From an uncultured Anaerolineaceae bacterium (GTDB taxonomy: Bacteria > Chloroflexota > Anaerolineae > Anaerolineales > UBA11579), in contig CAZUTS010000002.1 in NCBI GenBank assembly GCA_964623375.1, positions 126,081 through 190,080 on the forward strand: a stretch of 64,000 bases of DNA, written 5' to 3'. Below the pieces are notes generated by a model, which saw only the letters and a program-made list of their open reading frames with translations, had not been told where the DNA came from and ran no database searches. The position numbers and the translations under genes were made by a program. Shown here one piece after another: positions 12,390-47,485 of this stretch. Positions within the stretch are counted from its first letter, which is position 1. Every line of letters starts with the position of its first letter.

Positions 12390-14501
12390 ATGATTGCAGA
12401 TCTTGGTTTCTTTGCGCTGCTGGTGGCTTTCCTGCTGGCGCTGTATGCCTGCGTGGCTGCTGCCGTAGGGCACTGGCGTAAGCAGCAACGCTGGGTTAGC
12501 AGTGCGCGTGCTGCCGCCATGCTCGGTTTCCCGCTGCTCACCGTAGCGTGTGCCAGCTTGGTCTATTCGCTGGTCACTCTTGATTTCCACTTGCAGTACG
12601 TCACCCAGGTGAGCAGCCACAGCATGCCGCTCTACCTGCGTGCTACCGCGTTGTGGGGTGGGCAGGCCGGCTCGCTGCTCTTCTGGTCCTGGCTGATGGC
12701 CGCCTTCACCTTTGCCGTCATGCTGCGTGAATGGCGGCGTGATCGTGACCTGCAGCCGTGGGTCATCATCGTCACCTCCGCCACGTTGGCCTTCTTCCTG
12801 ACGCTCATCCTCTTCTTTGAGAATCCCTTCCTGCGCTACTGGCAGGGCATCACTGGCACGGTGTGGACGGCGATGTGGCAGCCCGCAGGCGCCCAGGCGT
12901 ACATCCCCATGGACGGCAACGGCCTCAATCCGCTGCTACGCCACCCGGGCATGATCATTCACCCGCCCATGCTGTATATCGGCTTTGTGGCCTTTGTGGT
13001 GCCGTTCGCTTTCGCCATCGCTGCCCTGGTCACCGGGCGCAGCGATGACCGCTGGATCCGTGTCACGCGCCGCTGGACGCTGATCGCCTGGCTGTTCCTC
13101 TCGCTCGGCCTGATCCTGGGCAGCCGCTGGGCCTACGATGTGCTGGGCTGGGGCGGCTACTGGGGCTGGGACCCGGTGGAGATCGCTGCGTTCATGCCCT
13201 GGCTCACCGGCACGGCCTTTTTGCATTCGGTGATGATCCAGGAGAAGCGCGGCATGTTCAAGCACTGGAACATGCTGCTCATCATCTTGACCTATTGTCT
13301 GGTCATCTTCGGCACCTTCCTCACACGTTCGGGGGTGCTGTCGTCTGTGCACGCCTTTGCGCAAAGCGCCATCGGGCCGATGTTCTTTGGCTTCATAGCG
13401 CTCACTTTCATCATTTCGCTGGCGCTGCTCAATAAGCGCTGGGGCACGTTGAGATCCGAAGTGGAGATGACCTCGCTGCTCTCACGCGAGTCGCTCTTCC
13501 TTATAAATAATCTGCTCTTCATGGGCATTCTGCTGATCTGCTTCTGGGGCGTAGTTTTCCCTATCGTGAGCGAAGCCAGCGGCGGCATTGGCCGCGCCAT
13601 CCCCGCCCTGGCGCACATTTTTACCGGGCAGCGCGCCACGGTTGGCCCCATCTTCTATGAGAGCGCCACCGGCCCGCTGTGGGCGGCCTTGCTGCTGCTG
13701 ATGGGCGTGGCCCCCTTGGCCGCCTGGCGCGCCTCCACGGCGCGCACGCTGGGGCGCGCCATCTGGAAGCCCTTCATCGTCTCGCTGGTGGTGCTGGCTG
13801 GCATGCTGCTGGGCGGCATGCGCAACGCGCTGGGCTTGCTCTCGCTGTGGATCTGTGCGTTTGTGCTGCTGGTGACCGTCTACGAGTTCTGGCGCGGCGC
13901 GCAAGCTCGCGTGAACCGTGGCGAGACCCCCTTACAGGCTTTCTGGCGCCTGATTGGCCGCAACCGCCGCCGCTATGGCGGCTATATCATTCACCTCGGC
14001 GTAATCCTTATCGCGGTGGGCATTATTGGTATTGAGCTCTTCCAGCAAGAGACGCAGGGCAGCCTGGCTGTGGGCGAGCGCATGCACCTGGGCAGCTACA
14101 GCGTGGAGTACGAATCACTAGCGGAGTTTGAAACGCCGGATGGCCGTTTGGTGGACCGCGCCGTGGTCAACGTCTACAAAGACGGGGCGTACCTGACCCA
14201 GCTCTACCCACGGCGTGACTTCTATTACGAATCACAGCAAGCCATGACCATTCCCGGCTTGCGCAGCACCGTTGAGAACGATGTGTACATCCTGCTGGTG
14301 GATTGGGAAGTGGTGAGCGCCAGCAGCGCCACCTTCAAAGTGTATGTCAATCCGCTGGTGAATTGGATCTGGTACGGCGGCTTTGTCTTCATCTTCGGCA
14401 CGCTGGTCGCTTCGTGGCCGGATGCCGAGCTGCGCCCGGCGCGCCAACGCGTGCGCGCCAGCAGCAACGCGAGGCGGGCTAGCAATGTGGAGCGCGCATG
14501 A
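12390..14501 (+). CDS. ccmF: Cytochrome c-type biogenesis protein CcmF (heme lyase)
   Basis: 703 aa polytopic. WWD motif 'WGGYWGWDPVE'. Confidence 0.9.
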   Translation: MIADLGFFALLVAFLLALYACVAAAVGHWRKQQRWVSSARAAAMLGFPLLTVACASLVYSLVTLDFHLQYVTQVSSHSMPLYLRATALWGGQAGSLLFWSWLMAAFTFAVMLREWRRDRDLQPWVIIVTSATLAFFLTLILFFENPFLRYWQGITGTVWTAMWQPAGAQAYIPMDGNGLNPLLRHPGMIIHPPMLYIGFVAFVVPFAFAIAALVTGRSDDRWIRVTRRWTLIAWLFLSLGLILGSRWAYDVLGWGGYWGWDPVEIAAFMPWLTGTAFLHSVMIQEKRGMFKHWNMLLIILTYCLVIFGTFLTRSGVLSSVHAFAQSAIGPMFFGFIALTFIISLALLNKRWGTLRSEVEMTSLLSRESLFLINNLLFMGILLICFWGVVFPIVSEASGGIGRAIPALAHIFTGQRATVGPIFYESATGPLWAALLLLMGVAPLAAWRASTARTLGRAIWKPFIVSLVVLAGMLLGGMRNALGLLSLWICAFVLLVTVYEFWRGAQARVNRGETPLQAFWRLIGRNRRRYGGYIIHLGVILIAVGIIGIELFQQETQGSLAVGERMHLGSYSVEYESLAEFETPDGRLVDRAVVNVYKDGAYLTQLYPRRDFYYESQQAMTIPGLRSTVENDVYILLVDWEVVSASSATFKVYVNPLVNWIWYGGFVFIFGTLVASWPDAELRPARQRVRASSNARRASNVERA

Positions 14502-14971
14502 AGCGGCTCGGCCTCTTGTTTGCGTTGAGCCTGCTGTTGGCCGCCTGTGCTGGCAGCCCGGCGGCAATTCAGTCTGCGCAGCAGGGTAGTGCTCCAAGCG
14601 CAGATCGGGTCAATGCGGTTGCCAAGAACCTGTACTGCCCGGTGTGCGCCAACGTGCCGCTGGATGTGTGCGGCACGGCGGCCTGTGTCCAGTGGCGCGG
14701 CCAGATCGCTGAGCTGCTTGCCGAAGGCTACAGCGAGCAGCAAGTCTATGACTATTTTGCCGCCCAGTACGGCCAGGGCGTGCTGGCGCTGCCGCCGGCG
14801 CGTGGCCTGAACTGGCTGGTCTATCTCATTCCCCCGCTGGGTATTGGCGTGGCCGCACTCTTCCTTGGGCGCAACCTCAAACGCTGGAAGCAGCCTGCGG
14901 CCACCAGCCAGACGAAGCTCGATGATGACTATGCGCGCAAGCTTGAAGAAGAGCTCGAGGCGCGCCGGTAA
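14498..14971 (+). CDS. ccmH: Cytochrome c biogenesis protein CcmH/NrfF family
   Basis: 157 aa. Signal peptide 'LLLAAC', 'LYCPVCANVPLDVC' (CxxC). 'QIAELLAEGYSEQQVYDYFAAQYG' aligns to the E. coli CcmH N-domain. C-terminal TM. Confidence 0.8.
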   Translation: MKRLGLLFALSLLLAACAGSPAAIQSAQQGSAPSADRVNAVAKNLYCPVCANVPLDVCGTAACVQWRGQIAELLAEGYSEQQVYDYFAAQYGQGVLALPPARGLNWLVYLIPPLGIGVAALFLGRNLKRWKQPAATSQTKLDDDYARKLEEELEARR

Positions 14972-14976
14972 CGGTA

Positions 14977-15522
14977 ATGACTGAAAACAAGAAACCTGTA
15001 TCCATTGTAGGGCGCGTGCTGGCCTGGGGTCTGCTGTTGGCCTTGCTAACCCTGGTGGCCATCCAACTGCGCAGCTCGCTGCAAGGTATCCTGACGCGCG
15101 GTGAGCAGGCGCCGGCCTTCACGCTCACCACCTTTGACGGCCAGACTGTGCGCAGCGAGGATTTGCTCGGCAAAGTCGTGCTGCTCAATATCTGGGCCTC
15201 GTGGTGTGCGCCCTGTATCGAAGAAGCTGCTCATCTGGAGCAGGCCTGGCAGCATTATAAGGACCGCGGCGATGTGGTCTTCCTCGGTTTGGCCTATGTG
15301 GACACTGAAAAAGAATCGCTGGCCTTTATTGAGGAGCACAATATCACCTACCTGAACGGGCCAGACCTCGGCACTACCATTTACACCGCTTTCCGGGCGC
15401 GTGGTGTGCCGGAGACCTTTGTCATCAACAAATATGGTGAGATTGCCTCGGTCAAGATCGGGCCATATCTCTCTGTTGAAGAAATCACCACGGTCATTGA
15501 CCGTTTGCTTGAGCTTGAATAA
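14977..15522 (+). CDS. Thiol:disulfide oxidoreductase, TlpA/ResA/CcmG (DsbE) family
   Basis: 181 aa. N-terminal TM, 'WASWCAPC' thioredoxin motif, 'GVPETFVI'. Confidence 0.85.
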   Translation: MTENKKPVSIVGRVLAWGLLLALLTLVAIQLRSSLQGILTRGEQAPAFTLTTFDGQTVRSEDLLGKVVLLNIWASWCAPCIEEAAHLEQAWQHYKDRGDVVFLGLAYVDTEKESLAFIEEHNITYLNGPDLGTTIYTAFRARGVPETFVINKYGEIASVKIGPYLSVEEITTVIDRLLELE

Positions 15523-15917
15523 TGGATCTCGGTTCACTACTCCTGTTTGTCGCGCTGCTGGTCATTTGCGCGCTGTACGTCGCCCGCCCGCTGCTCTCTG
15601 AGGCTGATGAGGACATCAGCCCTGAACTAGCCAACCTGCAGGCTGAGCACGCCCGTGTGCTGGAAGCCTTGCTGGAGCTGGATGCGGACTGGGAACTGGG
15701 CAAAGTGCCTGAGGAGATCTACCACCCCCAGCGCCAGCAACTGCTGGCCGAGGGTGCGGCCGTTTTGCGTGCCCTTGAAAAAGTGGATGTGGATACAGTG
15801 CCTGCCGCCAGCCAGCCGGCGGATGCCGATGAGCTCGAAGCCATGATCGCCAGCTACCGCAAACAGGCCAAGAAGACTTCCAAGCCAGCGCCCAAGAAGG
15901 GCGGGCGCAAGAAGTGA
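15522..15917 (+). CDS. Small membrane protein, CcmI/CycH N-terminal-like, with a polybasic tail
   Basis: 131 aa. N-terminal TM, then 'LDADWELGKVPEEIYHPQRQQL' (CcmI-like juxtamembrane helix). C-terminal 'KQAKKTSKPAPKKGGRKK'. Confidence 0.45.
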   Translation: MDLGSLLLFVALLVICALYVARPLLSEADEDISPELANLQAEHARVLEALLELDADWELGKVPEEIYHPQRQQLLAEGAAVLRALEKVDVDTVPAASQPADADELEAMIASYRKQAKKTSKPAPKKGGRKK

Positions 15918-17617
15918 GCCGCCGCATAGCAATATTGCTCCTGCTGGCGTTGGCGCTCAGCGCTTGCGAATTCTCGCTGGCCGGGGATGTAACCCCACCG
16001 CCGGATGCCATCATCAGCGGTGCGGAGAGCACGCCCGTGCCGGTGGAGTATCCGCCGGCGCCCGCAGACCCGATCGCTGGCGCTTTACTGTACGCGCAGA
16101 GCTGTGCGCCGTGCCACGGCGATAACGGCCGCGGCGATGGCCCCCAGGCCAACATGCTGCCTGTGCAGCCTGTGCCGATTGGCGTGAGTGAGCGCGCTGA
16201 TGCCGCCACGCCGGCCAACTGGTATCTGGCGATCACCCAGGGCAACCTGGATAACTTTATGCCCCCGTTTGTCAACCAACTCAGCTTGCAGCAGCGCTGG
16301 GATGTGCTCGCCTATGTCTATTCGCTCAGCCAGGATTCGTTGGCGGCCGAAGGCGGCGAGCAACTCTATACTGAGTACCAGGCGGCTGTGCAGGCCGCAC
16401 TGCCGCTGGCCGATATTCGCCAGATGGCCGGCTACAGCCGCAATGACATCCTGGCCGCCGTCGAGCCGGCTGTGCCCAGCCTGTCTTCGGCACAGCTGCT
16501 GGCGCTGACCTCGTACCTGCAAGCTATTTCGCTCGGTACACCGCCGCAACAGGCTCCCTCTGCTGAGGAGGAGAGCGCCCTCGGCAGCTTCCGTGGCCAG
16601 GTGGAAGACGGCACGGATGGCGAGCTGGCGGCCGGTTTGCAGGCGACCTTGTTTGGCTATGATGGCCAGACGCTGGCCTACACGGATGCAGTGAGCGTGG
16701 GCGCAAACGGCCGCTTCGCCTTTGATGCTGTGCCGCTGGGCGAAGGGCGCACTTTCTTTGCCTCGGTGGATTACTTGGGGCTGAGCTACTTCTCTGAATT
16801 TCTCGCCGATGGGCAAACCGAGTTTGAACATCCCATCACGGTCTACGAAACCACGCAGGACACCAGTCAGTTGGCCGTGGAGCGGCTGACCCTGATCCTG
16901 GAATTCGACACGCCCGGCTTTGTGCGCGTGGTGCAACAGTACCTGGTCTCCAATATCGGCACGCATGCTGTCACCCCGAATGCGGATGGCACACCGGTGC
17001 TGCTGTTCGACCTGCCGAGTGAAGCTACGGAGCTGGCCTTCAACGAGGGCCTCTTCGGCGAGCGTTACCTGCCCAGCGAGGGCGGCTTTGGTGACCTGCG
17101 TGCCATCCTGCCCGGCATGCAGAGCTACCAGTTGCTCTATGCCTACCAGATGCCCTATACGCGCAGCCTTGAGCTGCCGCTGAGTTTCAACATGCCAGCC
17201 CGCTCGGTAGTGGTGCTGGTGCAAGACAGTGATGTCACTTTGCACAACACAGACTTCAGCGAGATCGGCTCGCAAGAGATTGACGGCACCACCTACACTG
17301 CCTACCTTTCCAACCAGCCTTATTCTGTGGATGAGCAGCCCGAGTTGCAGCTGCGCGGCCGCAACCCGGCGGGCGGCGGCGGCTTGCAGGCCGTGCTGGC
17401 CAGCGACAATGTGGTCATCGGCCTGGCGGCGCTCACCGTGGCGGTAGGCTTGCTGTGGCTGTGGCTGCGCCGCATGCAGGCCGGGCCGGACCAGTTGCTG
17501 GCGCAGATCACGCGCCTGGATGAACGCTTTGCCCGCGGCGACATGGCCGAGAATGCGTACAAGCGCCAGCGTGCTGCCCTCAAGGCCCAACTGCGCCGCA
17601 GTGTAAAAGGTAAATGA
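15914..17617 (+). CDS. Membrane-tethered mono-heme c-type cytochrome lipoprotein with a beta-rich middle domain
   Basis: 567 aa. Lipobox 'LALSAC', heme motif 'CAPCHG', C-terminal TM 'VVIGLAALTVAVGLLWLWL' followed by 'LDERFARGDMAENAYKRQRAAL'. Confidence 0.7.
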   Translation: MSRRIAILLLLALALSACEFSLAGDVTPPPDAIISGAESTPVPVEYPPAPADPIAGALLYAQSCAPCHGDNGRGDGPQANMLPVQPVPIGVSERADAATPANWYLAITQGNLDNFMPPFVNQLSLQQRWDVLAYVYSLSQDSLAAEGGEQLYTEYQAAVQAALPLADIRQMAGYSRNDILAAVEPAVPSLSSAQLLALTSYLQAISLGTPPQQAPSAEEESALGSFRGQVEDGTDGELAAGLQATLFGYDGQTLAYTDAVSVGANGRFAFDAVPLGEGRTFFASVDYLGLSYFSEFLADGQTEFEHPITVYETTQDTSQLAVERLTLILEFDTPGFVRVVQQYLVSNIGTHAVTPNADGTPVLLFDLPSEATELAFNEGLFGERYLPSEGGFGDLRAILPGMQSYQLLYAYQMPYTRSLELPLSFNMPARSVVVLVQDSDVTLHNTDFSEIGSQEIDGTTYTAYLSNQPYSVDEQPELQLRGRNPAGGGGLQAVLASDNVVIGLAALTVAVGLLWLWLRRMQAGPDQLLAQITRLDERFARGDMAENAYKRQRAALKAQLRRSVKGK

Positions 17618-18318
17618 TCCAGGTCAAGAATCTCAGCAAGCGTTTTGGTTACCGTATGGCGCTGCACGGAGTAGATCTGCACGTACGCCGTGGGGAAGTG
17701 GTGGCCCTGCTCGGCCCCAATGGGGCGGGCAAGAGCACGCTGCTGCGCATTCTGGCCGGGCTGGCACAACCCACCGCCGGCCGCGTGCAGGTGGACGGCT
17801 GCCTGCTGCCACAGCAGGCGGCGGCCGCCCGCGCCCAGCTCGGTTACCTGGGCCACCAACCGCTTTTATATGATGACCTGACCGCTGACCAAAACCTGGA
17901 TTTCTTTGCACGCCTCTATAACGTACCCGCACCTGCAGAGCGCATTACTGAACTGCTGGAACTGGTAGCGCTGGACCACCGCCGCCGTGAAGCCGTGCGC
18001 GGCTTCTCACGCGGCATGCAGCAGCGCCTGGCGCTGGCGCGTGCGCTGTTGCACCGCCCACGCGTGCTGCTGCTGGATGAGCCGCACAGCGCTCTGGATC
18101 TGCAGACCGCTGATCTGCTGGATGAGGTTCTGCGCGCCGAAGCGCGTGCTGGCGCCAGCATCCTCATCGCCAGCCATGACCTGGGGCGGGTAGGTGGCCT
18201 GGTGCAGCGCGCTGAGCTGCTGGCCGATGGCCGCATCGCCGCCACCCTGCCTAAGGCCAAGCTGGGCGGCAAGCTGCCCGCGCATTATGAGAGGGCGCTC
18301 GAGGCTGCCAATGGCTAG
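17614..18318 (+). CDS. ccmA: Heme exporter ATP-binding protein CcmA
   Basis: 234 aa. 'GPNGAGKSTLL', 'FSRGMQQRLALARAL', 'LLLDEPHSALD'. Position directly upstream of ccmB/ccmC. Confidence 0.8.
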   Translation: MIQVKNLSKRFGYRMALHGVDLHVRRGEVVALLGPNGAGKSTLLRILAGLAQPTAGRVQVDGCLLPQQAAAARAQLGYLGHQPLLYDDLTADQNLDFFARLYNVPAPAERITELLELVALDHRRREAVRGFSRGMQQRLALARALLHRPRVLLLDEPHSALDLQTADLLDEVLRAEARAGASILIASHDLGRVGGLVQRAELLADGRIAATLPKAKLGGKLPAHYERALEAANG

Positions 18319-18985
18319 CTTCGTCTCCGCCGTCTGGGCCATCCTGCGCAAAGACCTGGCCGCCGAATGGCGCAGCCGCCAACTGGTCACCGCCATGCTG
18401 GTCTTTGTGGTGCTGGTCATCTTCATCTTTGCTTTCACGCTGGATATTGACACGCTCACCCGCCGCCAGATCGCCGCCGGCGTGCTGTGGACCACCTTTG
18501 CCTTCGCCGGCACCCTGGGGCTCAACCGCACCCTGGCCAGCGAGGGCGAGCGCGGCTCGCTGGATGGCCTGTTGCTGGCCCCGGTGGAGCGCAGCGCCAT
18601 CTACTTTGGCAAAACCCTGGCGAACTTATTTTTCATGCTGGTTGTGGAAATTTTCACGCTGCCGCTTTATGCTGTTTTCTACGATATGAACCTGGCACAG
18701 CCCGGCCTGTGGTTGGTGCTACTGCTGGGTTCGTGGTGCTTTTGCAGCGTGGGCACACTGTTGGCGGCCATGGCTGCCCAAGCCCGCAGCCGTGAACTGC
18801 TGCTGCCGGTGCTATTGTTCCCGCTGGTGCTGCCCGTGCTGGTATCCGCAGTGCGTGCCAGCAGCGCCTTTCTTAACGGCCTGGGTTTGGAGTACGCTCT
18901 GCCCAGCCTGAACATTTTGATCGCGTACGGCATCATCATGCCCGCCCTGGGCTTTATGGTTTTTGATTTCATTGTGGAGGAGTAG
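18311..18985 (+). CDS. ccmB: Heme exporter protein CcmB
   Basis: Start ATG 18311 (8-nt overlap with ccmA). 6-TM protein. 'SEGERGSLDGLLLAP' resembles the CcmB signature. Confidence 0.8.
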   Translation: MASFVSAVWAILRKDLAAEWRSRQLVTAMLVFVVLVIFIFAFTLDIDTLTRRQIAAGVLWTTFAFAGTLGLNRTLASEGERGSLDGLLLAPVERSAIYFGKTLANLFFMLVVEIFTLPLYAVFYDMNLAQPGLWLVLLLGSWCFCSVGTLLAAMAAQARSRELLLPVLLFPLVLPVLVSAVRASSAFLNGLGLEYALPSLNILIAYGIIMPALGFMVFDFIVEE

Positions 18986-18991
18986 TTTTAC

Positions 18992-19708
18992 ATGGCATCA
19001 ACTTCGTTAGACCGCAAGCCGCGCGCCTTGCATGCGCTGGACATTGTGTCCGCCCTGCTGATGGCGGCCACTATTTACATGGTGCTCTTCTATGCGCCTA
19101 CCGAGCGCGTGATGGGGCAGGTGCAACGCCTGTTTTACCTCCACGTGGCCAGCGCCTGGGTCAGTATGGCTGTGCTGATCCTCGCTGCTATTCTCGGCAT
19201 CGTGTATCTCGTTCGCCCGCAGAACAAGATCGATATCTGGGCCGTGGCCTGCATTGAGCTCGGCCTGGTGTACGCTTTCATCTGCGTCACCACCGGTGCC
19301 ATCTGGGCGCGCCCGGCCTGGAACACGTGGTGGACCTGGGATCCGCGTGTGGTGACCTTCACCATCCTCATTCTGGTCTACCTGGCTTATATGCTGCTGC
19401 GCCAGGGCATTGAAGACCCGCAGCGCCGTGCTCGCTTCGGCGCCATCTACGCCATCATGGCTTCGGTGACCGTGCCGCTGACCTATTTCTCGATCCGCAT
19501 TTGGCGCACCCTGCACCCGGTGGTGATCGGCAGTGGCGATCCCAGCGCACAGGGCACCTTTGACATGACGCGCCCCATGCTGCACACCCTGCTGTTCAGT
19601 CTGCTGGCTTTCAGCATTTTCGGCTTCACCTTGCTGTGGCACCGTGTGCGCCTGGGCTGGCTGGCCGATAGGGTAGAGCAACTGCGCATGAAGGCCCTGG
19701 GCCGCTAG
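18992..19708 (+). CDS. ccmC: Heme exporter protein CcmC
   Basis: 238 aa. WWD motif 'WARPAWNTWWTWDPRV'. Confidence 0.85.
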   Translation: MASTSLDRKPRALHALDIVSALLMAATIYMVLFYAPTERVMGQVQRLFYLHVASAWVSMAVLILAAILGIVYLVRPQNKIDIWAVACIELGLVYAFICVTTGAIWARPAWNTWWTWDPRVVTFTILILVYLAYMLLRQGIEDPQRRARFGAIYAIMASVTVPLTYFSIRIWRTLHPVVIGSGDPSAQGTFDMTRPMLHTLLFSLLAFSIFGFTLLWHRVRLGWLADRVEQLRMKALGR

Positions 19709-19717: not shown

Positions 19718-19999
19718 ATGCCCATTGAAACCACCAACTACATGCTGCTCGGCTTTGCCGTAGCTTTCATCACTATTGGATTACATCTGGTGAGCTTCCC
19801 GCTGCGCACGCGCAACCTCAAGGCCGATCTGCAAGCGTTGGAGACCGTACCCAAGGCCAGCGCCAAAGCGACTGGCAAGAAGGTAGCTGCCAAGAAGGCC
19901 GCGCCCAAAAAGACGGCGAAGAAGGCTGCGAAGAAAGTAGCTAAGAAGACGGCCAAGAAAACTGCCAAGAAAACTGCTAAGAGGACAGCCCGCCGTTAG
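19718..19999 (+). CDS. CcmD-like single-TM protein with a long Lys/Ala-rich (AKKT)n tail
   Basis: 93 aa. TM 'YMLLGFAVAFITIGLHLVSF' immediately after ccmC. Tail 'KKVAAKKAAPKKTAKKAAKKVAKKTAKKTAKKTAKRTARR' is encoded by 12-nt tandem repeats. Confidence 0.5.
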   Translation: MPIETTNYMLLGFAVAFITIGLHLVSFPLRTRNLKADLQALETVPKASAKATGKKVAAKKAAPKKTAKKAAKKVAKKTAKKTAKKTAKRTARR

Positions 20000-20139: not shown

Positions 20140-21471
20140 ATGCCCACAACTAAGAAAGCCTCCGCCACCAAAGCAGCGCCCGCCAGCCGTTGGTCTTCCA
20201 CCACCAAGTTGGTGGTGGGTCTTAGCCTGGTCGCCATGTTGGCCGCCATCCTGGTGCGCTTCAACTACTTGATCGGCCCGTTGCTGCTGGCTTTCATCAT
20301 TTCATACCTGCTGCATCCCTTGGTAACCAGGCTGTCTGAAGCCACGCGCTTGAAGTGGCGTGCGGCGGTCAGCCTTATCTTCGTCTTGTTCCTGGGGGCC
20401 GTGGTGTGGCTCTCCATCCTGGGCGGCTCGGCCGCGGTGGAGCAGATCGGTGCACTGATCACGGCCGGGCAGGAGCTGGTGACCGGCCTGCCCGAATTTG
20501 CCAGCCAGTTGGCTGAGCAGACCATCCATATTGGCCCGTTCAATATTCAGTTTGCTGATATAGAGCGCCTGCTGGAAGAAGAGTTCAGTCTTGACTTCGT
20601 TGCCCTCGGGCAGCAGCTGCTGTCTGCGCTGCAGCCGCTGCTGGGGCAGGCCGGCAGCCTGCTGGGTCGCCTGGCCACCGGTGCGCTCAGCACGCTGGGC
20701 TGGGCTGCCTTCATCTTCATCATCTCGTATTTCCTGTTGGTCGATTCGGAGAGCTTTCCCTCCTTCTTCGCCCAGATCGCCAGCACCGGCTATGACGCCG
20801 ATGTGCGCCGTATCGGGCGTGAGCTCTCGCGCATTTGGGATACCTTCTTGCGCGGCCAATTGGTCATCATCTCCCTTGTGGTAGTGAGCTATTTCATTCT
20901 GATGACAGTGCTGGGTGTGCACAATGCCATTGGTCTGGCTTTCCTGACTGGCCTAGCCAAGTTTGTTCCCTATGTCGGCCCGGTGGTGGCAGGCGGCACC
21001 GCTGCCTTGGTGGCGTACTTTCAGCAGGGCGGTAATTATCTGGGTATTGAGCCGTTTACCTACTCGGCCATTGTGGTGATTGGCACCTTGGTGTTGGACC
21101 AGGTCTTCGATAACCTGGTCAGCCCGCGCATCTTTGGCAAATCCCTGGGCGTGCACCCCGCCGCCGTGCTGGTGGCGGCCCTGGTGGCCACCAGCCTGCT
21201 CGGCTTTGTGGGGCTGCTGATGGCAGCCCCCGTGCTGGCCAGCTTGCAGATGTTGCTGCGCTTTGCCATCCGCAAGATGCTGGATCTCAACCCCTGGCCT
21301 GAGCGTGAAGTTCGGCAGTTAGAGCCGGTGGGGGCAGGGTTGGCACAACGCTTGCAAGGTCAATGGCAGGTATTGCGCACGCGTCTGCAGCAGTGGTACA
21401 AGGCATGGCGCAAGCGCAACACTACGCGCACCGCTGCGCGTAGTACGCCTGCCAAACGCAAGCAGAAGTAG
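20140..21471 (+). CDS. AI-2E family transporter (PerM/UPF0118)
   Basis: 443 aa polytopic. 'LAKFVPYVGPVVAG' is a typical AI-2E motif. Basic N- and C-termini. Confidence 0.8.
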   Translation: MPTTKKASATKAAPASRWSSTTKLVVGLSLVAMLAAILVRFNYLIGPLLLAFIISYLLHPLVTRLSEATRLKWRAAVSLIFVLFLGAVVWLSILGGSAAVEQIGALITAGQELVTGLPEFASQLAEQTIHIGPFNIQFADIERLLEEEFSLDFVALGQQLLSALQPLLGQAGSLLGRLATGALSTLGWAAFIFIISYFLLVDSESFPSFFAQIASTGYDADVRRIGRELSRIWDTFLRGQLVIISLVVVSYFILMTVLGVHNAIGLAFLTGLAKFVPYVGPVVAGGTAALVAYFQQGGNYLGIEPFTYSAIVVIGTLVLDQVFDNLVSPRIFGKSLGVHPAAVLVAALVATSLLGFVGLLMAAPVLASLQMLLRFAIRKMLDLNPWPEREVRQLEPVGAGLAQRLQGQWQVLRTRLQQWYKAWRKRNTTRTAARSTPAKRKQK

Positions 21472-21489: not shown

Positions 21490-21517
21490 GCAAGATTCTT
21501 ACTAGCAAGAATCTTGC
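21490..21517 (+). terminator. Perfect 11-bp hairpin after the AI-2E gene (terminator or operator)
   Basis: gcaagattctt-actagc-aagaatcttgc. The downstream T-tract is weak (tagtttgg). Confidence 0.35.
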
Positions 21518-21550
21518 TAGTTTGGCGTATACTTTAATGCCCTTTTTGGG

Positions 21551-22918
21551 GTGTATTTTTTGATGTCTATGGTCAAAACTGCCATTGTTCTCACCCCCAG
21601 CCCCGGCTTTGGCGAAATGGTACGCCAACTGCTTGCGGACGCACAGGATGTGCGCCCGCAAGTTTTGGCGTCTCCCGATGCCGCCCTCAAAGCGGCCACA
21701 AATGGCTTGGATCTCCTGGTGCTGGACACTGATTTTGCAGACATGGACATTGCCGCCTACCTGGCCAGCGTGCAGCAAGCCGCACCGCAGGCCAAAACCA
21801 TCTTGATCCTGTCTGAAGACACTCCCGCCGATGGCTGGGAGCAGGCTGGCGCCAGCGCGGTGCTGCCGCAGCCTTTTTACCTGCCTGACTTGGCCGCGGC
21901 GATTGAAGTCTTATATGGCCCGCTGCACGTGCGTGAAGAGGCTGCCACGGCGCGCTTCGGTAGCGCTGCCGTAGCAGTACGCCCGGCGCAGGCGCCAAGC
22001 CGTGCCGCCCCGGCATGGCTTGCTGATACGGCGCTCTCGGTGCAGCATTTGGCGCAACTTTCGATGGAGTCGGCTTCGCAGGCGGCGCTGATCACGCGTG
22101 GCTCGCAGGTGTGGGCCTATGCTGGCGAGCTGCCCCAGGCGGCCGCCAACGAATTGGCGGCCGCCGTGTCCAACGGCGGTGAAGCCGCTGCAGACGTGGC
22201 GCGCTTCGTGCGCCTAGAAGCTACTGGCGCCGATTACATGCTATATGCCACCCCGCTGGGCAGCGATTACAAGCTGGCCGTGGTATTTGATACGCAAGTG
22301 CCGTTCAGCAAGATGCGCACGCAGGTAGACAAGATGGCTACGGCGATGAGCGCGGTAACGGCGAAGAGCGCGGTGGTTGAGGTGCAGGCCGTGACCGCTG
22401 CCAACGCCCCAGCCGCTAAGACACCAAGCATGCCCGCTGCCGACTTTGCTGGCGAGCCTGCCATGCCGCCTTCAAACGCACCACCGCGCGTGCGCTGGCT
22501 GCCCGCCAGCGAGGCAAGTGCCGCTGGCGGCCAGACGCTGCTGAGCTATGCCTATGTGCTGGCGCCGCGCCTGCCGGAGCACCGTTTGGAAGGTGACCTG
22601 GCCGAGAAGCTGGCCGCCTGGCTGCCGCAGCTGTGCGTGGCCTTCGCCTGGCGGCTGGAGCATCTCAGCATTCAGCCGGGCTTCATCCAATGGATGGTGA
22701 GCCTGCCAGCGGAGACGGCGCCTGAGCGCGTGGTGCATATGCTGGAAACGCACCTCTCCGAGCGCGTCTTCGAAGAGTTCACCCGCCTCAAGCGAGACAA
22801 TCCCTCAGGCCAATTCTTTGCACCAGGATTCCTGATTATGAATGGCGGCTTGCCCACGGATGCGCAGGTGACGGATTTCATCAAGCACACGCGCACTCGC
22901 CAGGGTATTCCAACATAG
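21551..22918 (+). CDS. Three-module protein: degenerate receiver (REC)-like, Roadblock/LC7 (MglB)-like, and catalytically inactivated IS200/Y1-transposase-like C-terminal domain
   Basis: 455 aa. aa 8-125 have a REC pattern ('LDLLVLDTDFADMD', 'ILILSED', 'PQPF'). aa 165-265 'ALITRGSQVWAYAGELP...DYMLYATPLGSDYKLAVVFD'. aa 328-452 align colinearly to IS608 TnpA, but HUH becomes 'FIQW' and the catalytic Tyr becomes Phe ('TDFIKH'). Confidence 0.5.
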   Translation: MYFLMSMVKTAIVLTPSPGFGEMVRQLLADAQDVRPQVLASPDAALKAATNGLDLLVLDTDFADMDIAAYLASVQQAAPQAKTILILSEDTPADGWEQAGASAVLPQPFYLPDLAAAIEVLYGPLHVREEAATARFGSAAVAVRPAQAPSRAAPAWLADTALSVQHLAQLSMESASQAALITRGSQVWAYAGELPQAAANELAAAVSNGGEAAADVARFVRLEATGADYMLYATPLGSDYKLAVVFDTQVPFSKMRTQVDKMATAMSAVTAKSAVVEVQAVTAANAPAAKTPSMPAADFAGEPAMPPSNAPPRVRWLPASEASAAGGQTLLSYAYVLAPRLPEHRLEGDLAEKLAAWLPQLCVAFAWRLEHLSIQPGFIQWMVSLPAETAPERVVHMLETHLSERVFEEFTRLKRDNPSGQFFAPGFLIMNGGLPTDAQVTDFIKHTRTRQGIPT

Positions 22919-23024
22919 TGAGCTGTGAGCAGGGAACAGTGAATAGTGAGCAGTCGCTAAGTTTTGCTGATTCCTGATTACTGTTCACTCCTCACTCCTC
23001 ACTAGTTACTCGCCTCTCCCCTAG

Positions 23025-23030
23025 TACAAT
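23025..23030 (+). promoter_or_regulatory. -10 box TACAAT 6 nt upstream of the polA ATG; leaderless-type
   Basis: ctagTACAATctttgcATG. Confidence 0.4.
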
Positions 23031-23036: not shown

Positions 23037-25832
23037 ATGCCCCAAACGCTCTATCTCATCGATGGCCATGCTTTGGCCTACCGCACCTACTTCGCGCTCA
23101 CCAGTGCCGGGGCGGGCAGCAGCCGCTGGACCACCAGCTCTGGCGAGCCCACCGCTGGCGTGTTCGGCTTCACCTCCGTATTGCTGCGCATCCTCGAGCA
23201 GGAGCGGCCGGAGTACATGGCGGTGGCCTTCGATGTCGGCAAGACTTTTCGTGATAAGCGCTACCCTGAATACAAAGCCACCCGCGAGAAAATGCCGGAT
23301 GACTTGCGCGTCCAAATGGAGCGCATCCGCGAGATGGTGGATGCTTTCAACTTTCCGCGCCTGGAGATGGAAGGCTTCGAAGCCGACGACGTGATCGGCA
23401 GCATTGCCAAGAAGGCCGCCAGCGAAGGGGTGGGGGTCAAAATCATCACGGGCGATAAGGATTTGCTGCAACTGGTAGACAAGCGCATTATCGTCAGCCT
23501 GCCGGGCAAGCAGCTTGCCGACGGCAAAGATTATGGCCCACAAGAGGTATTCGAGTTTCTGGGGGTGATGCCGGAGCAGGTAGTGGACTTCAAAGCCATG
23601 ATTGGCGATAAGTCTGACAATATTCCCGGCGTCTCCGGCATTGGTGAGAAGACCGCCGCTGGCCTGCTGGCCGAGTACAAGACGCTGGATAATATCTACG
23701 CCAACTTAGACAAGCTCAAACCGGCCCAGCGTCAAAAATTCGAAGATGGCCGCGAGAAAGCCTACCTGAGCTACGAGCTGGCGCGCATCGTCACGGATAT
23801 GGATATTGATTTCCACATTCAACAGGCGCGCACAGACCGCATCAAAGCCCAAGACGTGCAAGAGCTCTTCCGCCAGTTGGAGTTCCGCTCGTTGATGAAG
23901 CGCCTCACCACCGTGCTGGAGCTGGGCAACATGCCCCAGGACACCAAGCTCGGCCAACTGGGCATGTTCCCTGAGGACAATCCTGCGCCGCGTGGCCCGG
24001 CGGTGGATATTGACGTTGAAGTGGTGGATACACCCGAAAAGCTGGCCAGCCTAGCCAAAACGTTGGCAGATGCGCCACGCATTGCCTTTGATACCGAGAC
24101 CAGCAGCACCGATCACATGCAATGTGACCTGGTGGGCATTTCGCTGGCGGTGGAGGAGGGTAAGGGCTACTACATTCCCATCGGGCACGAACCGATGCTC
24201 GGCCGCCAACTGTCCATCGAGGAGGTGGTGGCAGCGTTGCGCGGCCCGCTGACTGACCCCAAGATCCCCAAGCTGGGTCATAACCTCAGCTTTGACTACG
24301 TCATCCTGGCGCGCCACGGCCTCAAAGTGCACCCGCTGAGCATGGACAGCATGATCGCCGAGTGGGTGGCTGACAGCGGCTCGCGCAACCTCGGTCTCAA
24401 GGGGTTGGTATGGGTGCGCCTCAACAACGAGATGACCGAGATCCAAGACCTGCTGGGCAAAGGCCGCAAGCAGATTACCATGGCGCAAGTGCCCATCGAG
24501 CAGGCCGCCGCCTATGCCGCTGCCGATTCGGAAGTGGTGCTGCGTCTGGAGCCTGTGCTCGCCGAGCGTATTCAGCAGGTGAAGGGCGAGCGTGTCTTCG
24601 CCGAGCTGGAGATGCCGCTGGTGCGCGTGCTCTCAGACATGGAAATGACCGGCATCATGCTGGATACAGCCTTCCTGGCCGAGATGGGCGCCGAGCTCAA
24701 CAAGGAGCTGGAGCGCATCGGCACTGAGGTCTATCAACAGGTGGGCGAGGAGTTCAATCTCAGCTCGCCGCAGCAGCTGGCGCACATGCTCTTTGACCGC
24801 CTCAAGCTGCCGCCGCCGGCTGGCGTGCGTAAGACCGCCAGCGGCGCCTACTCCACCTCGGCAGACATCCTTGAGGCGATGAGCGAGCAGCACCCGATCG
24901 TGGACCTCATCCTCAGCCATCGTGAGTATTCCAAGCTCAAGACCACCTATGTGGACGCGCTGCCGCTGGAAGTCAACCCGGCTACCAACCGCGTGCATAC
25001 CTCGTACAACCAGGCCGGCACGGTGACGGGGCGCATTGCCTCCAGCGAGCCCAATCTGCAAAACATTCCCATTCGCACGGAACTCGGCCGCCGCGTGCGC
25101 CGCGCTTTCATTGCCGCCCCCGGCCACAAGCTGCTGGGCGTGGACTATTCGCAGGTGGAGTTGCGCATCGTGGCGCACATCGCGCAAGACGAGGCCATGC
25201 TCAACGCCTTCCGCAACAACGAAGATATTCACATCACCACGGCTGCCGCTATCCTAGGCATTCAGCCCGGCCAGGTAACAGGTGAGCAGCGCCGCAACGC
25301 CAAGGCGGTGAACTTCGGCCTGATCTATGGCATGAGTCCCTTTGGGCTGACGCGCAGCACCGATCTCACGCTGGCCGAAGCTGAGAACTTCGTCAAAGCG
25401 TATTTTGAGAAGTTCCCCGGTGTGCGTGCCTATATTGACAATACGAAGAAGAAAGCTGCCGAGCTGGGCTACATCGAAACGCTGCTCGGCCGCCGCCGCC
25501 TGTTCCAGGGGCTGAAAGATGGCACCAATTATGTGCTCAAGAGCCGTCTCGAGCGCGAGGCGATCAACAGCCCCATCCAGGGCACTGCGGCCGATATCAT
25601 GAAGCTGGCCATGCTGCGCGTGGATGCGGCGCTGGCCGCATCCACGCTCGGCGCGCGCATGCTGCTGCAGGTGCATGATGAGCTGGTGCTGGAAGTGCCT
25701 GAGGCTGAGCTGGCCGAGACGGCGGCACTGGTGGGGCGCGAGATGAGCAACGCCTACGAACTCAGCGTGCCGTTGCAAACCGAAGTCAAGGTGGGCAAAA
25801 ACTGGGGGCAGATGGAGCTGTTGGCTGGGTAA
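23037..25832 (+). CDS. polA: DNA polymerase I
   Basis: 931 aa. 5'-nuclease N-terminus, 3'-5' exo 'IAFDTETSS', pol motifs 'DYSQVELRIVAH', 'RRNAKAVNFGLIYG', 'LQVHDELVLE'. Confidence 0.97.
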   Translation: MPQTLYLIDGHALAYRTYFALTSAGAGSSRWTTSSGEPTAGVFGFTSVLLRILEQERPEYMAVAFDVGKTFRDKRYPEYKATREKMPDDLRVQMERIREMVDAFNFPRLEMEGFEADDVIGSIAKKAASEGVGVKIITGDKDLLQLVDKRIIVSLPGKQLADGKDYGPQEVFEFLGVMPEQVVDFKAMIGDKSDNIPGVSGIGEKTAAGLLAEYKTLDNIYANLDKLKPAQRQKFEDGREKAYLSYELARIVTDMDIDFHIQQARTDRIKAQDVQELFRQLEFRSLMKRLTTVLELGNMPQDTKLGQLGMFPEDNPAPRGPAVDIDVEVVDTPEKLASLAKTLADAPRIAFDTETSSTDHMQCDLVGISLAVEEGKGYYIPIGHEPMLGRQLSIEEVVAALRGPLTDPKIPKLGHNLSFDYVILARHGLKVHPLSMDSMIAEWVADSGSRNLGLKGLVWVRLNNEMTEIQDLLGKGRKQITMAQVPIEQAAAYAAADSEVVLRLEPVLAERIQQVKGERVFAELEMPLVRVLSDMEMTGIMLDTAFLAEMGAELNKELERIGTEVYQQVGEEFNLSSPQQLAHMLFDRLKLPPPAGVRKTASGAYSTSADILEAMSEQHPIVDLILSHREYSKLKTTYVDALPLEVNPATNRVHTSYNQAGTVTGRIASSEPNLQNIPIRTELGRRVRRAFIAAPGHKLLGVDYSQVELRIVAHIAQDEAMLNAFRNNEDIHITTAAAILGIQPGQVTGEQRRNAKAVNFGLIYGMSPFGLTRSTDLTLAEAENFVKAYFEKFPGVRAYIDNTKKKAAELGYIETLLGRRRLFQGLKDGTNYVLKSRLEREAINSPIQGTAADIMKLAMLRVDAALAASTLGARMLLQVHDELVLEVPEAELAETAALVGREMSNAYELSVPLQTEVKVGKNWGQMELLAG

Positions 25833-27443
25833 TTACTGGCGCAGGAACACCAGGCCGAAATCATCTTCATAGATCAGCTGGTACCGGCTGAAGTCATCCA
25901 GAAGGGCGGCACGGTAGAAGCGGTGCATCGGCTCCAGGCGTTCGGGGTCAGGTGCGCTAGCCAGATAGTCTGCATCTCCGTAGGCTTCCACATTCTCGCG
26001 TTCCAGCAGCAGCACATCAGGCTGCTCAGAGTTGAGCATATCGTGGCTGCCCAGATCCCAATCCATGAACACGGACATATCGTCTTCGGCTGGAAAGTAC
26101 ACCTTCCAGTCACGGTAGATGTGTAGCGGTGAGGTTTGCTCGGCCAGCAGCGGCTGCACGCTGTGGTAGAAACGCAGGCTGGGCGAAGTCTGCTCGCGCT
26201 GCAGGTTGTGCAGGTAGTGTCCCCCGCTGCTGACAGCAAACTGGCTGGCCTGCCAGGCCAGGAAGGCCACCAGCGCCCACTGCAGCACGACGCGGGCTTT
26301 GCCCGGCCCCGGGCGCAGGTCTTGCCAGCGCTCCGGCAGCACGAAGACCAGCGCCGTCATGGCGGGCAGCATGATCGGCAGCCAGTAGTGGATGCGCCAT
26401 GACGAAGCATTGAGCATCACGACCAGGTTGGGCAGCAGCCAGGCGGTGAGCAGCGCGGCGTGCAGGAGCGGTTCGCCGCCTTTGCGCCAGCCGATCACTA
26501 GGGCCACACCGAGCAGGGCGAGAAATAACGGGCTGCCGAAGTTTGTGGTTAGCCAGCTGGGCAGGCGGCCATTCTGCAAAAAGCCACTCGGCCCCATCAA
26601 GATGCCCTGGCTGGTCTGTTCAAATTGCAGGCGCTGGTTGGCAATCAAATCGGCGCGCTGCGGAAATAGCAGCAGCGGATTGGTGATCACGAAGGTGACT
26701 AGCATCAGCGCCACAAAGCCGGCTGCATAACCTGCAAAGCGTGCCGGGGTCAGCGCTTTACGTGCTAGCCCCAGCAAAAGATAGAGGGGAATGGCGAAGA
26801 CGAAGAAGCCGCCTACATACTTGATACCCAAGCCAATACCAGCCGCGACCGCACTGAGCCAAAAATAGCGGCCAAAGCGCAGCCGGTCTACACGCAGGCA
26901 GAAGAACACCAGCGCCATGAACAGCAAGCCCAGCCCATCGGCGTGCCACCATAAGCTATTGCCGGTGAGGCCTGGCAATAGCAGCATCAGTACAAACAGA
27001 AGGATGGTTTTAAAGCTGGATTTAAACTCAGTGGCGGCGTAGGTGAGCAGCCACACGCTGAGTAGATTAGGCAGCACATTGATGAGCTGGCGCAGCACCA
27101 CAACGATGGTGCTGGTGTGTTCAGCCCATCCGCTGCCCAGCAACAAGCGCAGCGGCAGCAGTACCAGCGCTGAGAAGAAGTAAAACGGATAGCCGTAGAA
27201 GTAGTGCTGATAGACCACAAACTCGCGCAGGCTGTCACGCCAGTTGTCATTGCCGCTGGCCATACGCACAGCGTGCTCGTATTGGGCAAACTCATCCACC
27301 TCAAAGATGGCGAGCATCTCAGGCGTTTGTGCGCCGGTTAGGTTGGGAAAAATAAATAGGACAAAATACAGCAAGCTGCAGACGAGCAGTAGCCATATCG
27401 TACGAAAGTGCCTTGGCTGCGTATTAGACGAACTTTTTTTCAT
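25833..27443 (-). CDS. GT-C fold membrane glycosyltransferase (family 39/ArnT/PMT-like)
   Basis: 536 aa, about 12 TM. First-loop acidic motif 'FEVDEFAQYEH'. Large C-terminal soluble domain. Its stop abuts the polA stop. Confidence 0.6.
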   Translation of the reverse strand: MKKSSSNTQPRHFRTIWLLLVCSLLYFVLFIFPNLTGAQTPEMLAIFEVDEFAQYEHAVRMASGNDNWRDSLREFVVYQHYFYGYPFYFFSALVLLPLRLLLGSGWAEHTSTIVVVLRQLINVLPNLLSVWLLTYAATEFKSSFKTILLFVLMLLLPGLTGNSLWWHADGLGLLFMALVFFCLRVDRLRFGRYFWLSAVAAGIGLGIKYVGGFFVFAIPLYLLLGLARKALTPARFAGYAAGFVALMLVTFVITNPLLLFPQRADLIANQRLQFEQTSQGILMGPSGFLQNGRLPSWLTTNFGSPLFLALLGVALVIGWRKGGEPLLHAALLTAWLLPNLVVMLNASSWRIHYWLPIMLPAMTALVFVLPERWQDLRPGPGKARVVLQWALVAFLAWQASQFAVSSGGHYLHNLQREQTSPSLRFYHSVQPLLAEQTSPLHIYRDWKVYFPAEDDMSVFMDWDLGSHDMLNSEQPDVLLLERENVEAYGDADYLASAPDPERLEPMHRFYRAALLDDFSRYQLIYEDDFGLVFLRQ

Positions 27444-27535: not shown

Positions 27536-28315
27536 TTATTCGTCTGCGCGGTTGTAAAGCAGCAGCCAGGCGCCCCAGGCGGGGTCGCCGGCCTCAGTGA
27601 TGCAGGCGGCAGGCTGTAGGCCCGCCAGCGTTTCCGTGCCGGCGATGGAGAGAATGTAGGTCTCGCCGGGGGTCATTTCATATTCCGTATAGCCGGGGCC
27701 AAAATCTGGCCGTGCGCCGGTGAAGAACTCATTGCTGCTTTCGCCATCGTGCATGGCCAGGCGCACGCCGGCCTGGGCCTGGCCGCTCTCATCGAAGATG
27801 AATAGCTTGACCAGCGGCGGAGCCTCACTGCTTTCACACAACAGCTCGCGGCTGGAGAGGGTGTAGCTTCCGCCTTCTTCCTGAGCCGCAAAGGGTGTGG
27901 GGGCGGCATTGGCATTTTCAGGATTCGGCGTGTTCACCGCCACCGAGGTGGATTGTGCGCTGGCCTGGAACGCTTCGAGGTCACGCGCCAGGCTGGCCAG
28001 CGCACGCGCCTCGCGCTGCGTGGCGCTATTGCCCAGCGCCAGCTGGGCTTGGGCGCTGAGGGCACGCGCCGGGTCGGCATCGCCCAGTTGCGCCAGGCGC
28101 GCTTGGGCGCGGTTGATGTCGCCGCTGGAGGCATAGGCCAGGGCGATCATCAGACGGTATTGGTCCTGATGCTCATCGGCAAGATGGCTGGGGCCAACGC
28201 TGCTGACCTGCAGCGGGAAAATGATGAAAGAGAGCAGGCAGCCAAAGAGCAAGCCGAGCACCAGCCCGGTGATGAGATACAGCGGTGGCCGCTTGGAAGA
28301 TTCTTTGGTCATCAT
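27536..28315 (-). CDS. Single-TM protein with a TPR-like helix pair and a C-terminal beta domain (hypothetical)
   Basis: 259 aa. TM 'LYLITGLVLGLLFGCLLSFIIF'. 'MIALAYASSGDINRAQARLAQL' is paralogous to the upstream 120-aa ORF. Confidence 0.5.
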   Translation of the reverse strand: MMTKESSKRPPLYLITGLVLGLLFGCLLSFIIFPLQVSSVGPSHLADEHQDQYRLMIALAYASSGDINRAQARLAQLGDADPARALSAQAQLALGNSATQREARALASLARDLEAFQASAQSTSVAVNTPNPENANAAPTPFAAQEEGGSYTLSSRELLCESSEAPPLVKLFIFDESGQAQAGVRLAMHDGESSNEFFTGARPDFGPGYTEYEMTPGETYILSIAGTETLAGLQPAACITEAGDPAWGAWLLLYNRADE

Positions 28316-31917: not shown

Positions 31918-31941
31918 CGCAATGACAGGGCGGAGAAGGCT

Positions 31942-31968
31942 AACCACAAGGACACAAAGAGCACGAAG
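31942..31968. repeat. 'AACCACAAAGNCACAAAG' element, single arm
   Basis: aaccacaaggacacaaagagcacgaag. Related to the arms at 39197-39240 and 47408-47480. Confidence 0.6.
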
Positions 31969-35294: not shown

Positions 35295-35432
35295 CTGTCA
35301 TTGCGAGCCGGCGAAGCAATCTCCAAGCCGATACTGGGATTGCTTCGTCCGTTTGCCGCACAGCGGCAATACTCCTCGCAATGACAAGTTGCCTGTACCT
35401 GTGTCATTCCGAGCGCAGCGAGGAATCCGTGC
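35295..35432. repeat. Cluster of a family-A composite (unit + inverted unit) and a family-B unit
   Basis: ctgtcattgcgagccggcgaagcaatctcc ... gggattgcttcgtccgtttgccgcacagcggcaatactcctcgcaatgacaag ... gtgtcattccgagcgcagcgaggaatccgtgc. Confidence 0.85.
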
Positions 35433-39175: not shown

Positions 39176-39196
39176 AATCAAAACTAACCAAAGACA

Positions 39197-39240: not shown

Positions 39241-39259
39241 TTGTTAAACTTTTTAAGTT

Positions 39260-47480: not shown

Positions 47481-47485
47481 GCTTT

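Follow-up and report, generated by a model that had tools for sequence, protein, structure and literature searches.

The window analysed here, a 64,000-nucleotide stretch of an uncultured Anaerolineaceae bacterium (contig CAZUTS010000002.1; G+C about 61%), carries on its forward strand an open reading frame (ORF) at 21551-22918, listed with 455 aa from a GTG codon. Directly downstream on the same strand lies polA (23037-25832), which by Pfam encodes a full-length DNA polymerase I with 5'-3' exonuclease, 3'-5' exonuclease and family A polymerase domains. A sequence-only reading had described the product of the first gene as an orphan protein fusing a pseudo-receiver, a Roadblock/LC7-like domain and a catalytically dead IS200-type transposase fold. 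As a description we hold the following with high confidence: the protein is conserved and non-mobile, and is made up of a pseudo-receiver that is unlikely to be phosphorylated in the classical way, a Roadblock domain of the MglB type and an IS200-type TnpA domain without a working active site. The three by-eye domain assignments were correct (Pfam, profile and Foldseek matches for the C-terminus, a receiver fold at the N-terminus, an MglB fold in the middle), while “orphan” was wrong, as the protein has relatives in about 800 clusters at 50% identity. The adjacency to polA is the main new finding and had no place in the earlier description.

Residues are numbered throughout from the GTG at 21551. 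In an upstream-region alignment of the window and five orthologous loci, in which ATGTCTATGGTC is kept, the second ATG is the sole start common to all six close loci, so the real start is probably ATG 21563 or ATG 21569; homologues begin with MSMV... or M.... The AlphaFold model of the whole protein (overall predicted local distance difference test score, pLDDT, 81.8) resolves three folded domains and two disordered linkers, all on the plus strand: a pseudo-receiver (REC-like) domain at residues 9-122 (21575-21916; pLDDT 89-97); linker 1 at residues 123-154 (21917-22012; pLDDT <50 at residues 129-144); the MglB-like Roadblock/LC7 domain at residues 155-283 (22013-22399); an Ala/Pro-rich linker 2 at residues 284-326 (22400-22528; pLDDT <50), whose length ranges across the family from 39 to 360 aa; and the dead IS200/IS605 TnpA-like domain with Y1/HUH fold at residues 327-452 (22529-22906).

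The C-terminal domain shares fold and homology with the TnpA transposases of IS200/IS605 insertion sequences (IS608, ISDra2 and Sulfolobus 2ec2; TnpAY1 subclass 1.1, PMC6006769). Pfam Y1_Tnp (PF01797; cut-off 23 bits) matches residues 330-445 with 33.5 bits (E 5e-8) in the whole protein and 37.2 bits in the isolated domain, and a profile built from 24 family C-termini finds the solved IS200/IS605 TnpAs at E-values of 4.6e-13 (Sulfolobus 2ec2), about 3e-12 (ISDra2) and 3.6e-6 (IS608) in almost gap-free alignments. The same TnpAs are the best Foldseek matches of the modelled domain in the PDB (template-modelling (TM) scores 0.69-0.83; e.g., 2fyx at TM 0.83 and a root-mean-square deviation of 2.3 Å over 122 columns), and the model is confident throughout this domain (pLDDT >90). 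The likeness of residues 328-452 to IS608 TnpA, claimed earlier by eye, is thereby borne out. The domain has the length of a free-standing TnpA (about 125 aa), and the family also keeps the Ser of the “KG.S” helix and the G.(F/L)W...Y strand.

What the domain lacks is the active site. In the profile alignment the ISDra2 segment “mpDHvHlll” faces “rpeFlQwsv”, which places F378-I379-Q380 (22682-22690) at the H-u-H positions, and “iqkYiesq” faces “vkeFikqt”, which places F443 (22877-22879) at the catalytic Tyr132; the Gln of the Y---Q signature is T447. At the Tyr position the window sequence thus resembles the crystallised Y132F mutant of ISDra2 TnpA (2xo6). The replacement of HUH by F-I-Q and of Tyr by Phe443 had been read from the letters, with the reservation that catalytic residues might reappear once the alignment was correct; they are absent from the profile alignment, and the column counts agree. 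Across 179 members, the first HUH His position holds Y in 95, F in 57 and H in only 7, and the second holds Q in 117, H in 19 and L in 17; H-L-H occurs in P0126 (498 aa) alone, with Phe where the Tyr would be. The Tyr column, counted in 100 aligned sequences, contains F 55, Y 37 and H 7. HUH and Tyr occur together in no member examined.

Loss of catalysis has gone along with new conservation. Relative to IS200/IS605 TnpA, HUH has become [YF]-[LIVM]-Q, the nucleophilic Tyr has become F or Y, and Y---Q has become [FY]---T-R, while NPSG and R..QG are new invariant motifs of the family. W381, N417-P-S-G420 (22799-22810), F422, R448, Q451 and G452 are conserved in 97-100% of the 100 aligned sequences, as are E370, W367, S403 and F407, and the dead domain contains a set of new invariant polar residues (NPSG, R448, Q451, E370 and W381). 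Identity in the Y1 domain across the family is 40-66%. Its charge is close to neutral (median net +1, K+R about 12) and comparable with that of ISDra2 TnpA (net 0, K+R 12); the remainder of the protein is acidic, with median net charges of -7 in the receiver, -5 in the Roadblock domain and -9 in linker 2.

The family is large. A word-indexed search returned 99 clusters of the same length and architecture (the closest 96% and 79% identical, the most distant about 32%), the relative at 96% protein identity being an Anaerolineales metagenome-assembled genome (MAG; locus L001). An exhaustive hidden Markov model search with the middle domain alone returned 801 representatives of 50%-identity clusters at E<=1e-10 (243 of them at E<=1e-30), and in nearly all of these the Roadblock domain lies at residues ~130-170 of a protein of 450-620 aa. 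Ten outliers in architecture, some of them long and others beginning with the Roadblock domain, share a C-terminal Y1_Tnp domain, so the Roadblock and dead Y1 domains form an obligate core. The receiver is optional: P0093 and P0095 (375 aa; on contigs of 157 kb and 39 kb) have their N-termini a short way ahead of the Roadblock domain. No paper on the family or its three-domain architecture was found, in keeping with the earlier remark that no described family was known to have it.

Among species-representative genomes, 532 stretches encode a relative, and 80 of these, from 80 different assemblies, were taken for the analyses of loci. Each of these genomes has one locus, and relatives that carry a taxon name are all Chloroflexota, mostly Anaerolineales or Anaerolineae. 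Plasmids gave just two weak matches, both to the Y1 part (22-24% identity) and one of them on an annotated IS200/IS605 tnpA; phages gave none; and ORF clustering found neither tnpB nor insertion-sequence ends among the conserved neighbours. Ratios of nonsynonymous to synonymous divergence (dN/dS) between the window gene and its five orthologues are 0.03-0.14 in the Y1 domain, 0.10-0.15 in the Roadblock domain and 0.06-0.17 in the receiver, and 0.09-0.40 and 0.19-0.47 in linkers 1 and 2. All three domains are under purifying selection, and it is strongest in the dead Y1 domain. The idea that the protein is domesticated is supported by the single locus per genome, the confinement to Chloroflexota where named, the absence from plasmids and phages, and the selection pattern.

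Two further observations concern the gene and its family. Synonymous divergence (pS) from L002-L005 is lower in the Y1 part (22529-22906; 0.40-0.45) than elsewhere in the gene (0.55-0.70), which may reflect constraint at the nucleotide level, e.g., polA regulatory signals or RNA structure. A motif in linker 2, [IL][LF]x[DN][VI]PxPxP (e.g., LLDDVPPPIP), lies about 30 residues past the Roadblock domain in 59 of 179 members, against 0.5 expected from shuffled linkers; it is found in P0064-P0097 and others, is absent from the window protein, and may be a partner-docking peptide.

Databases name members of this family “transposase”, “IS200/IS605 family transposase”, “RayT/response regulator” or “response regulator transcription factor”, and taken at their word the first two of these names, with “RayT”, would make the window protein an ordinary IS200/IS605 transposase or an REP-associated tyrosine transposase (RAYT; REP, repetitive extragenic palindrome), either active or decaying. 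The Pfam Y1_Tnp match agrees with such names, but the NCBIfam model for IS200 transposases (NF033573, transpos_IS200) scores only 30.4-34 bits against a cut-off of 55, and, unlike IS200/IS605 elements, the family is immobile, has neither tnpB nor subterminal hairpins, occupies one fixed locus per genome and carries the domain fused behind two others. RAYTs are a parallel in that they too are Y1 proteins kept by the host in single copy, and JGI labels members “RayT” through a COG label. According to PMC8266576 and PMC6006769, however, RAYTs retain HUH and Tyr, cut REPs and sit between REPs in the REPtron; this family is without the catalytic residues, and no REPs flank the window gene. Nor does any E. 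coli RAYT structure appear among the matches of the C-terminal profile to the PDB at E<=1, where IS200-type TnpAs match instead. The TnpAY1 superfamily of Quentin et al. (2018; PMC6006769) is itself defined by a conserved HuH/Y core, and receiver fusions are not mentioned there. With catalysis lost family-wide, a single fixed locus, purifying selection, and absence from plasmids and phages, we reject an active or decaying transposase as extremely improbable. The family should not be filed under that name, since the defining features (HUH, Tyr, mobility, the NCBIfam cut-off) all fail.

A fixed position invites the question of what the position is next to. Synteny with polA was counted in those 70 of the 80 loci whose flanks reach 1.5 kb or more. 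In 61 of them polA is the next gene downstream, in the same orientation and at a gap of mostly 20-160 nt; in five more loci it lies 0.8-5.3 kb downstream on the same strand. ORF clustering likewise recovers polA in 65 loci (median gap 66 nt), and the pairing is kept in the receiver-less members L025, L029, L030 and L069. The upstream neighbour is far less constant; an AI-2E family transporter gene, which occupies 20140-21471 in the window, is conserved at just 27 of the 80 loci. Every further neighbour occurs in fewer loci than this transporter, with the exception of a tetratricopeptide repeat (TPR) protein of ~773 aa encoded right after polA on the same strand in 53 of the 80 (e.g., L007:14304-16637). 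It is absent from the window and its clade, and its frequency elsewhere suggests that the TPR protein, polA and the family gene make up a three-gene unit in most of the family.

The way in which the two genes are expressed appears to differ between lineages. At many loci the gap is 20-40 nt and contains Shine-Dalgarno-like sequences, which looks like co-transcription with polA. The window's clade is arranged otherwise. Here the 118-nt spacer before polA contains, from the stop codon on, a long imperfect hairpin with GTGAnCAG-like units (22916-23004, plus strand; minimum free energy -38.1 kcal/mol, z -2.97), the stem of which is kept in L001-L005 with compensatory changes at 4 pairs and is restricted to this clade. 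It is followed by a -10-like box, TACAAT (23025-23030, plus strand), at -12 from the polA ATG and invariant in the six close loci, a position that suggests a separate, leaderless polA transcript in the window's clade. More widely, 23 of the 70 loci have a TAnnnT box starting at -12 or -13, and 28 have one starting anywhere from -16 to -10. The family gene has a probable promoter of its own in a second -10-like box, TATACT (21528-21533, plus strand), about 30 nt upstream of the start and invariant in the six close loci, though the consensus scan did not call it. Because adjacency to polA is kept across these differing arrangements, we infer that a functional link is favoured over a merely shared promoter.

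Two smaller structures lie near this putative promoter. The leader of the gene (21528-21550 region) contains a small GCCC-TTTT-GGGG hairpin conserved in the six loci, and a perfect palindrome with 11-bp arms, GCAAGATTCTT-ACTAGC-AAGAATCTTGC, follows the AI-2E transporter gene at 21490-21517. The palindrome was considered as a conserved operator and rejected, since besides the window L001 alone has it; probably it belongs to the transporter gene, as a local hairpin resembling a terminator.

The middle domain defines the family, and it is also the domain that conventional models hardly match: no Pfam model covers it, Robl_LC7 matches one of 26 members at E 0.14, and the NCBIfam MglB model matches at E 0.0087, far below its cut-off. 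Its identity as a Roadblock/LC7 domain, proposed earlier from its pattern, rests on structure. Modelled separately (pLDDT 82.1, predicted TM score 0.73), it has an alpha-beta-beta-alpha-beta-beta-beta-alpha topology, and its best 29 Foldseek matches in the PDB are all MglB (E 4.5e-5 to 8e-4, TM ~0.55-0.63), followed by Rag C-terminal, LAMTOR and Roadblock/LC7 domains. Sequence comparison points the same way, if weakly: the best eight matches of the family profile to PDB sequences are all MglB (best E 1.5e-3). The fold is that of MglB and other Roadblock/LC7 proteins (Myxococcus xanthus and Thermus thermophilus MglB, CvnB, LAMTOR/Rag), including the extra C-terminal helix of the MglB type. Unlike MglB, the domain has no recognised Robl_LC7 signature, is embedded in a multidomain protein and has an invariant WAYAG motif of its own; the invariant residues are W156, W188-A-Y-A-G192 (22112-22126), E201, D215, R218, Y232 and R256.

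With the Roadblock domain as the best-conserved, family-defining part, and MglB GTPase-activating proteins as its closest structures, the protein might, in the manner of MglB, regulate or scaffold a small GTPase or some other NTPase encoded elsewhere (acting, e.g., in the polarity or gliding of these filamentous bacteria). The dead TnpA domain would then serve for protein interaction, and the adjacency to polA would be historical. Chloroflexi do encode MglA-family GTPases, and Wuichet and Søgaard-Andersen counted 328 “orphan” MglB homologues, none of them characterised as of 2015 (PMC4316618); a large TPR scaffold protein, moreover, is encoded after polA in 53 of the 80 loci. Yet 421 of 749 MglB homologues are coupled to an MglA gene (PMC4316618), and this family, unlike many MglB proteins, is not. 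A search for an MglA-like partner, suggested earlier, came back empty: no GTPase cluster occurs among the conserved neighbours within ~7-9 kb at the 80 loci, and no ORF of the 64-kb window combines a P-loop with DxxG and NKxD. This explanation also leaves unaccounted for an obligatory Y1 domain that is the most constrained part of the protein, as well as the persistence of polA adjacency while other neighbours change. We consider it unlikely.

The N-terminal domain has a receiver fold and an incomplete receiver pocket. Pfam Response_reg scores the window protein at 16.3-19.4 bits (E ~1e-3) against a cut-off of 30.2, which some relatives pass, and Foldseek aligns the model to receivers at TM 0.7-0.86, among them Spo0F (TM 0.85), with Spo0F, KdpE and PmrA at 0.77-0.86, and the CpaE/TadZ-type atypical receivers 4dad and 4dn6. 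Of 92 receiver-bearing sequences, 90 retain the phospho-acceptor Asp59 (21725-21727; in LLVLD, where beta-3 ends). In the window protein, by contrast, the acidic pair expected after beta-1 is replaced by T15-P16, and none of the 121 members scored has it (TP 79, TS 14, SP 10, among others). At the Lys position at the end of beta-5 the window protein has Q107, and the 121 members have K (57), S (38) or Q (13); for the Thr/Ser at the end of beta-4 the window protein has L87, and 58% of the family have P. The earlier observation of a pseudo-receiver that keeps Asp and lacks the acidic pair and Lys was thus accurate for the window protein, in which Lys seems to be an ancestral residue lost in the clade, the Mg-binding pair being the one feature missing throughout the family. 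Given the established roles of these residues in CheY-like proteins, the family-wide lack of the Mg-binding pair makes classical phosphotransfer unlikely, and no histidine kinase is found among the conserved neighbours by ORF clustering at the 80 loci. The suggestion that the protein is signal-coupled becomes doubtful, because every member is missing the Mg-binding pair of a phosphorylatable receiver. Atypical receivers (the CpaE/TadZ N-terminal domain, aspartate-less and other non-phosphorylatable REC) likewise have the fold without the full phospho-acceptor pocket, although the aspartate-less type differs from this family, which keeps its Asp and in about half of its members the Lys.

A receiver placed first is the layout of a response regulator, and one member is indeed named “response regulator transcription factor” by NCBI. 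The protein could then be a transcriptional or post-transcriptional regulator of polA or a wider regulon, with the dead TnpA domain as nucleic-acid-binding output and the pseudo-receiver and Roadblock domain as input; the conserved position next to polA would suit this, and the clade's spacer hairpin and TACAAT box could be its target. The hairpin, however, is confined to the window's clade, and most members have gaps of 20-60 nt without such an element. Regulators of a single neighbour are more often divergently transcribed, and an input domain that is dispensable in some members, and that lacks the acidic pair wherever it is present, sits poorly with such a role. No Y1 fold, moreover, is known as a transcription factor. 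We think a regulator of this kind improbable, if no more so than an MglB-type scaffold.

The sequence-only reading had looked for the ligand of the Y1 domain in hairpin-forming repeats, describing the segment as dense in REP- and MITE-like elements (MITE, miniature inverted-repeat transposable element). Two MITE-like hairpin families do exist in the window: family A, containing CATTGCGAGGAG, at 65-128, 10005-10054 and 35303-35388, and family B, CACAAAGnnCACAAAG, at 31941-31968, 39183-39241 and 47395-47485; a palindrome with 44-nt arms lies at 59423-59513. “Dense” is only partly true of 3-4 copies of each family in 64 kb, and no dispersed repeat flanks the gene, since the palindrome at 21490-21517 occurs just once in the window and the spacer hairpin has no further copy. 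Among 81 loci, families A and B occur in only L004 and L005 and in none of the other 79, while the protein, and its Y1 domain above all, is conserved across the whole group, which leaves the proposed link to repeats weak. Being lineage-specific, the repeats are rejected as a family-wide target, and a role tied to them is unlikely for the family. Should the domain bind DNA, some conserved structure, or else a partner protein, is more likely to be its target.

A defensive form of the same idea casts the protein as a dominant-negative decoy, whose dead TnpA domain would sit on IS200/IS605 ends, or on REP/MITE-like hairpins, and so keep them from being mobilised. It can point to a TnpA fold retained with a DNA-compatible charge and to the presence of MITE-like hairpins in the window. 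We regard it as quite improbable, more so than the GTPase scaffold or the regulator, because repeats found at 2 of 81 loci contrast with a Y1 domain 40-66% identical across the family, because the gene has no REPtron-like flanking arrangement, and because the link to polA would go unexplained. A defence system more generally was considered and rejected, as PADLOC gave no match to anti-phage or other defence models for the family protein or the TPR neighbour; polA matches the PADLOC model RTasPolA solely as a family A polymerase.

Its position beside polA suggests that the TnpA-derived domain was recruited into host DNA metabolism, and the best explanation we can offer, though a tentative one, is non-catalytic binding of DNA structures in conjunction with DNA polymerase I. 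The family itself is, with high confidence, a vertically inherited Anaerolineae host protein built on an obligate pair of Roadblock and exapted TnpA domains, usually with an N-terminal receiver unable to bind Mg2+ in the normal manner. Roadblock domains, TnpA and many receivers dimerise, and on that ground the protein is predicted to be a homodimeric adaptor. Its dead TnpA domain would bind a ligand in the former active-site cleft without cutting it. The likeliest ligand would be structured single-stranded DNA (a hairpin, flap or gap), with a partner protein as the other candidate; the ancestral enzyme binds such DNA on the lagging-strand template. Acting jointly with DNA polymerase I, the adaptor might mark or hand over substrates, e.g., in Okazaki-fragment maturation or gap repair. 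The Roadblock domain and pseudo-receiver could serve as platforms for dimerisation, partner binding or regulation, and the DNA-binding domain may be shielded by the linkers, which are acidic (median net charge about -9). More specifically, and more speculatively still, a TnpA captured early in Anaerolineae evolution, stripped of catalysis and welded to an MglB-like platform (usually with a pseudo-receiver) may have become an accessory or regulatory subunit of Pol I for hairpins, flaps or gaps on the lagging strand.

Several observations weigh against a partnership with Pol I. Taken as a whole the protein is strongly acidic, an unusual property in one that binds DNA, and the alternation of F and Y in the Tyr column, together with the variation in the HUH columns, fits a merely structural role for these positions. 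Roadblock domains classically regulate small GTPases, not polymerases. A beta-clamp-binding motif is present in just 4 of 179 members, which we count as not found. Conserved adjacency is by itself no proof of joint function, and in the window's clade the strong hairpin and the polA -10 box may mean that the two genes are expressed separately.

If a Pol I accessory role were true, it would mark the first time that a Y1/HUH domain had been exapted without its catalysis for core DNA replication or repair in bacteria, and the first pairing of a Roadblock protein with a polymerase rather than a GTPase. The family matters in other respects as well. The known domesticated Y1/HUH proteins (RAYTs) still have their chemistry; this one, a transposase-derived host protein that is non-catalytic, multidomain and polA-linked, has lost it and retains the fold, and the dead domain is the most constrained part of a protein spread over a large part of Chloroflexota. 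As its constant neighbour is the housekeeping DNA polymerase I, the family offers a testable link between a transposase-derived reader of single-stranded DNA structure and lagging-strand or repair synthesis. It also gives a handle on orphan MglB proteins, in that an MglB-like domain without a nearby GTPase gene is here found in a clear genomic context. For annotation, hundreds of entries under the four names cited above are mislabelled, and counts of mobile elements in Chloroflexota MAGs are inflated as a result.

Beyond the genes discussed, the region upstream contains a cytochrome c maturation cluster on the same strand (12390-19708; CcmF, CcmH, a thioredoxin-like protein, a c-type cytochrome, CcmB and a CcmC-like protein), after which a small Lys/Ala-rich protein of 93 aa with an N-terminal hydrophobic segment is encoded (19718-19999). 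Downstream of polA, two ORFs lie on the minus strand, one of 536 aa that is hydrophobic and apparently multi-spanning (25833-27443) and one of 259 aa (27536-28315), both without a Pfam match at E<=0.001.

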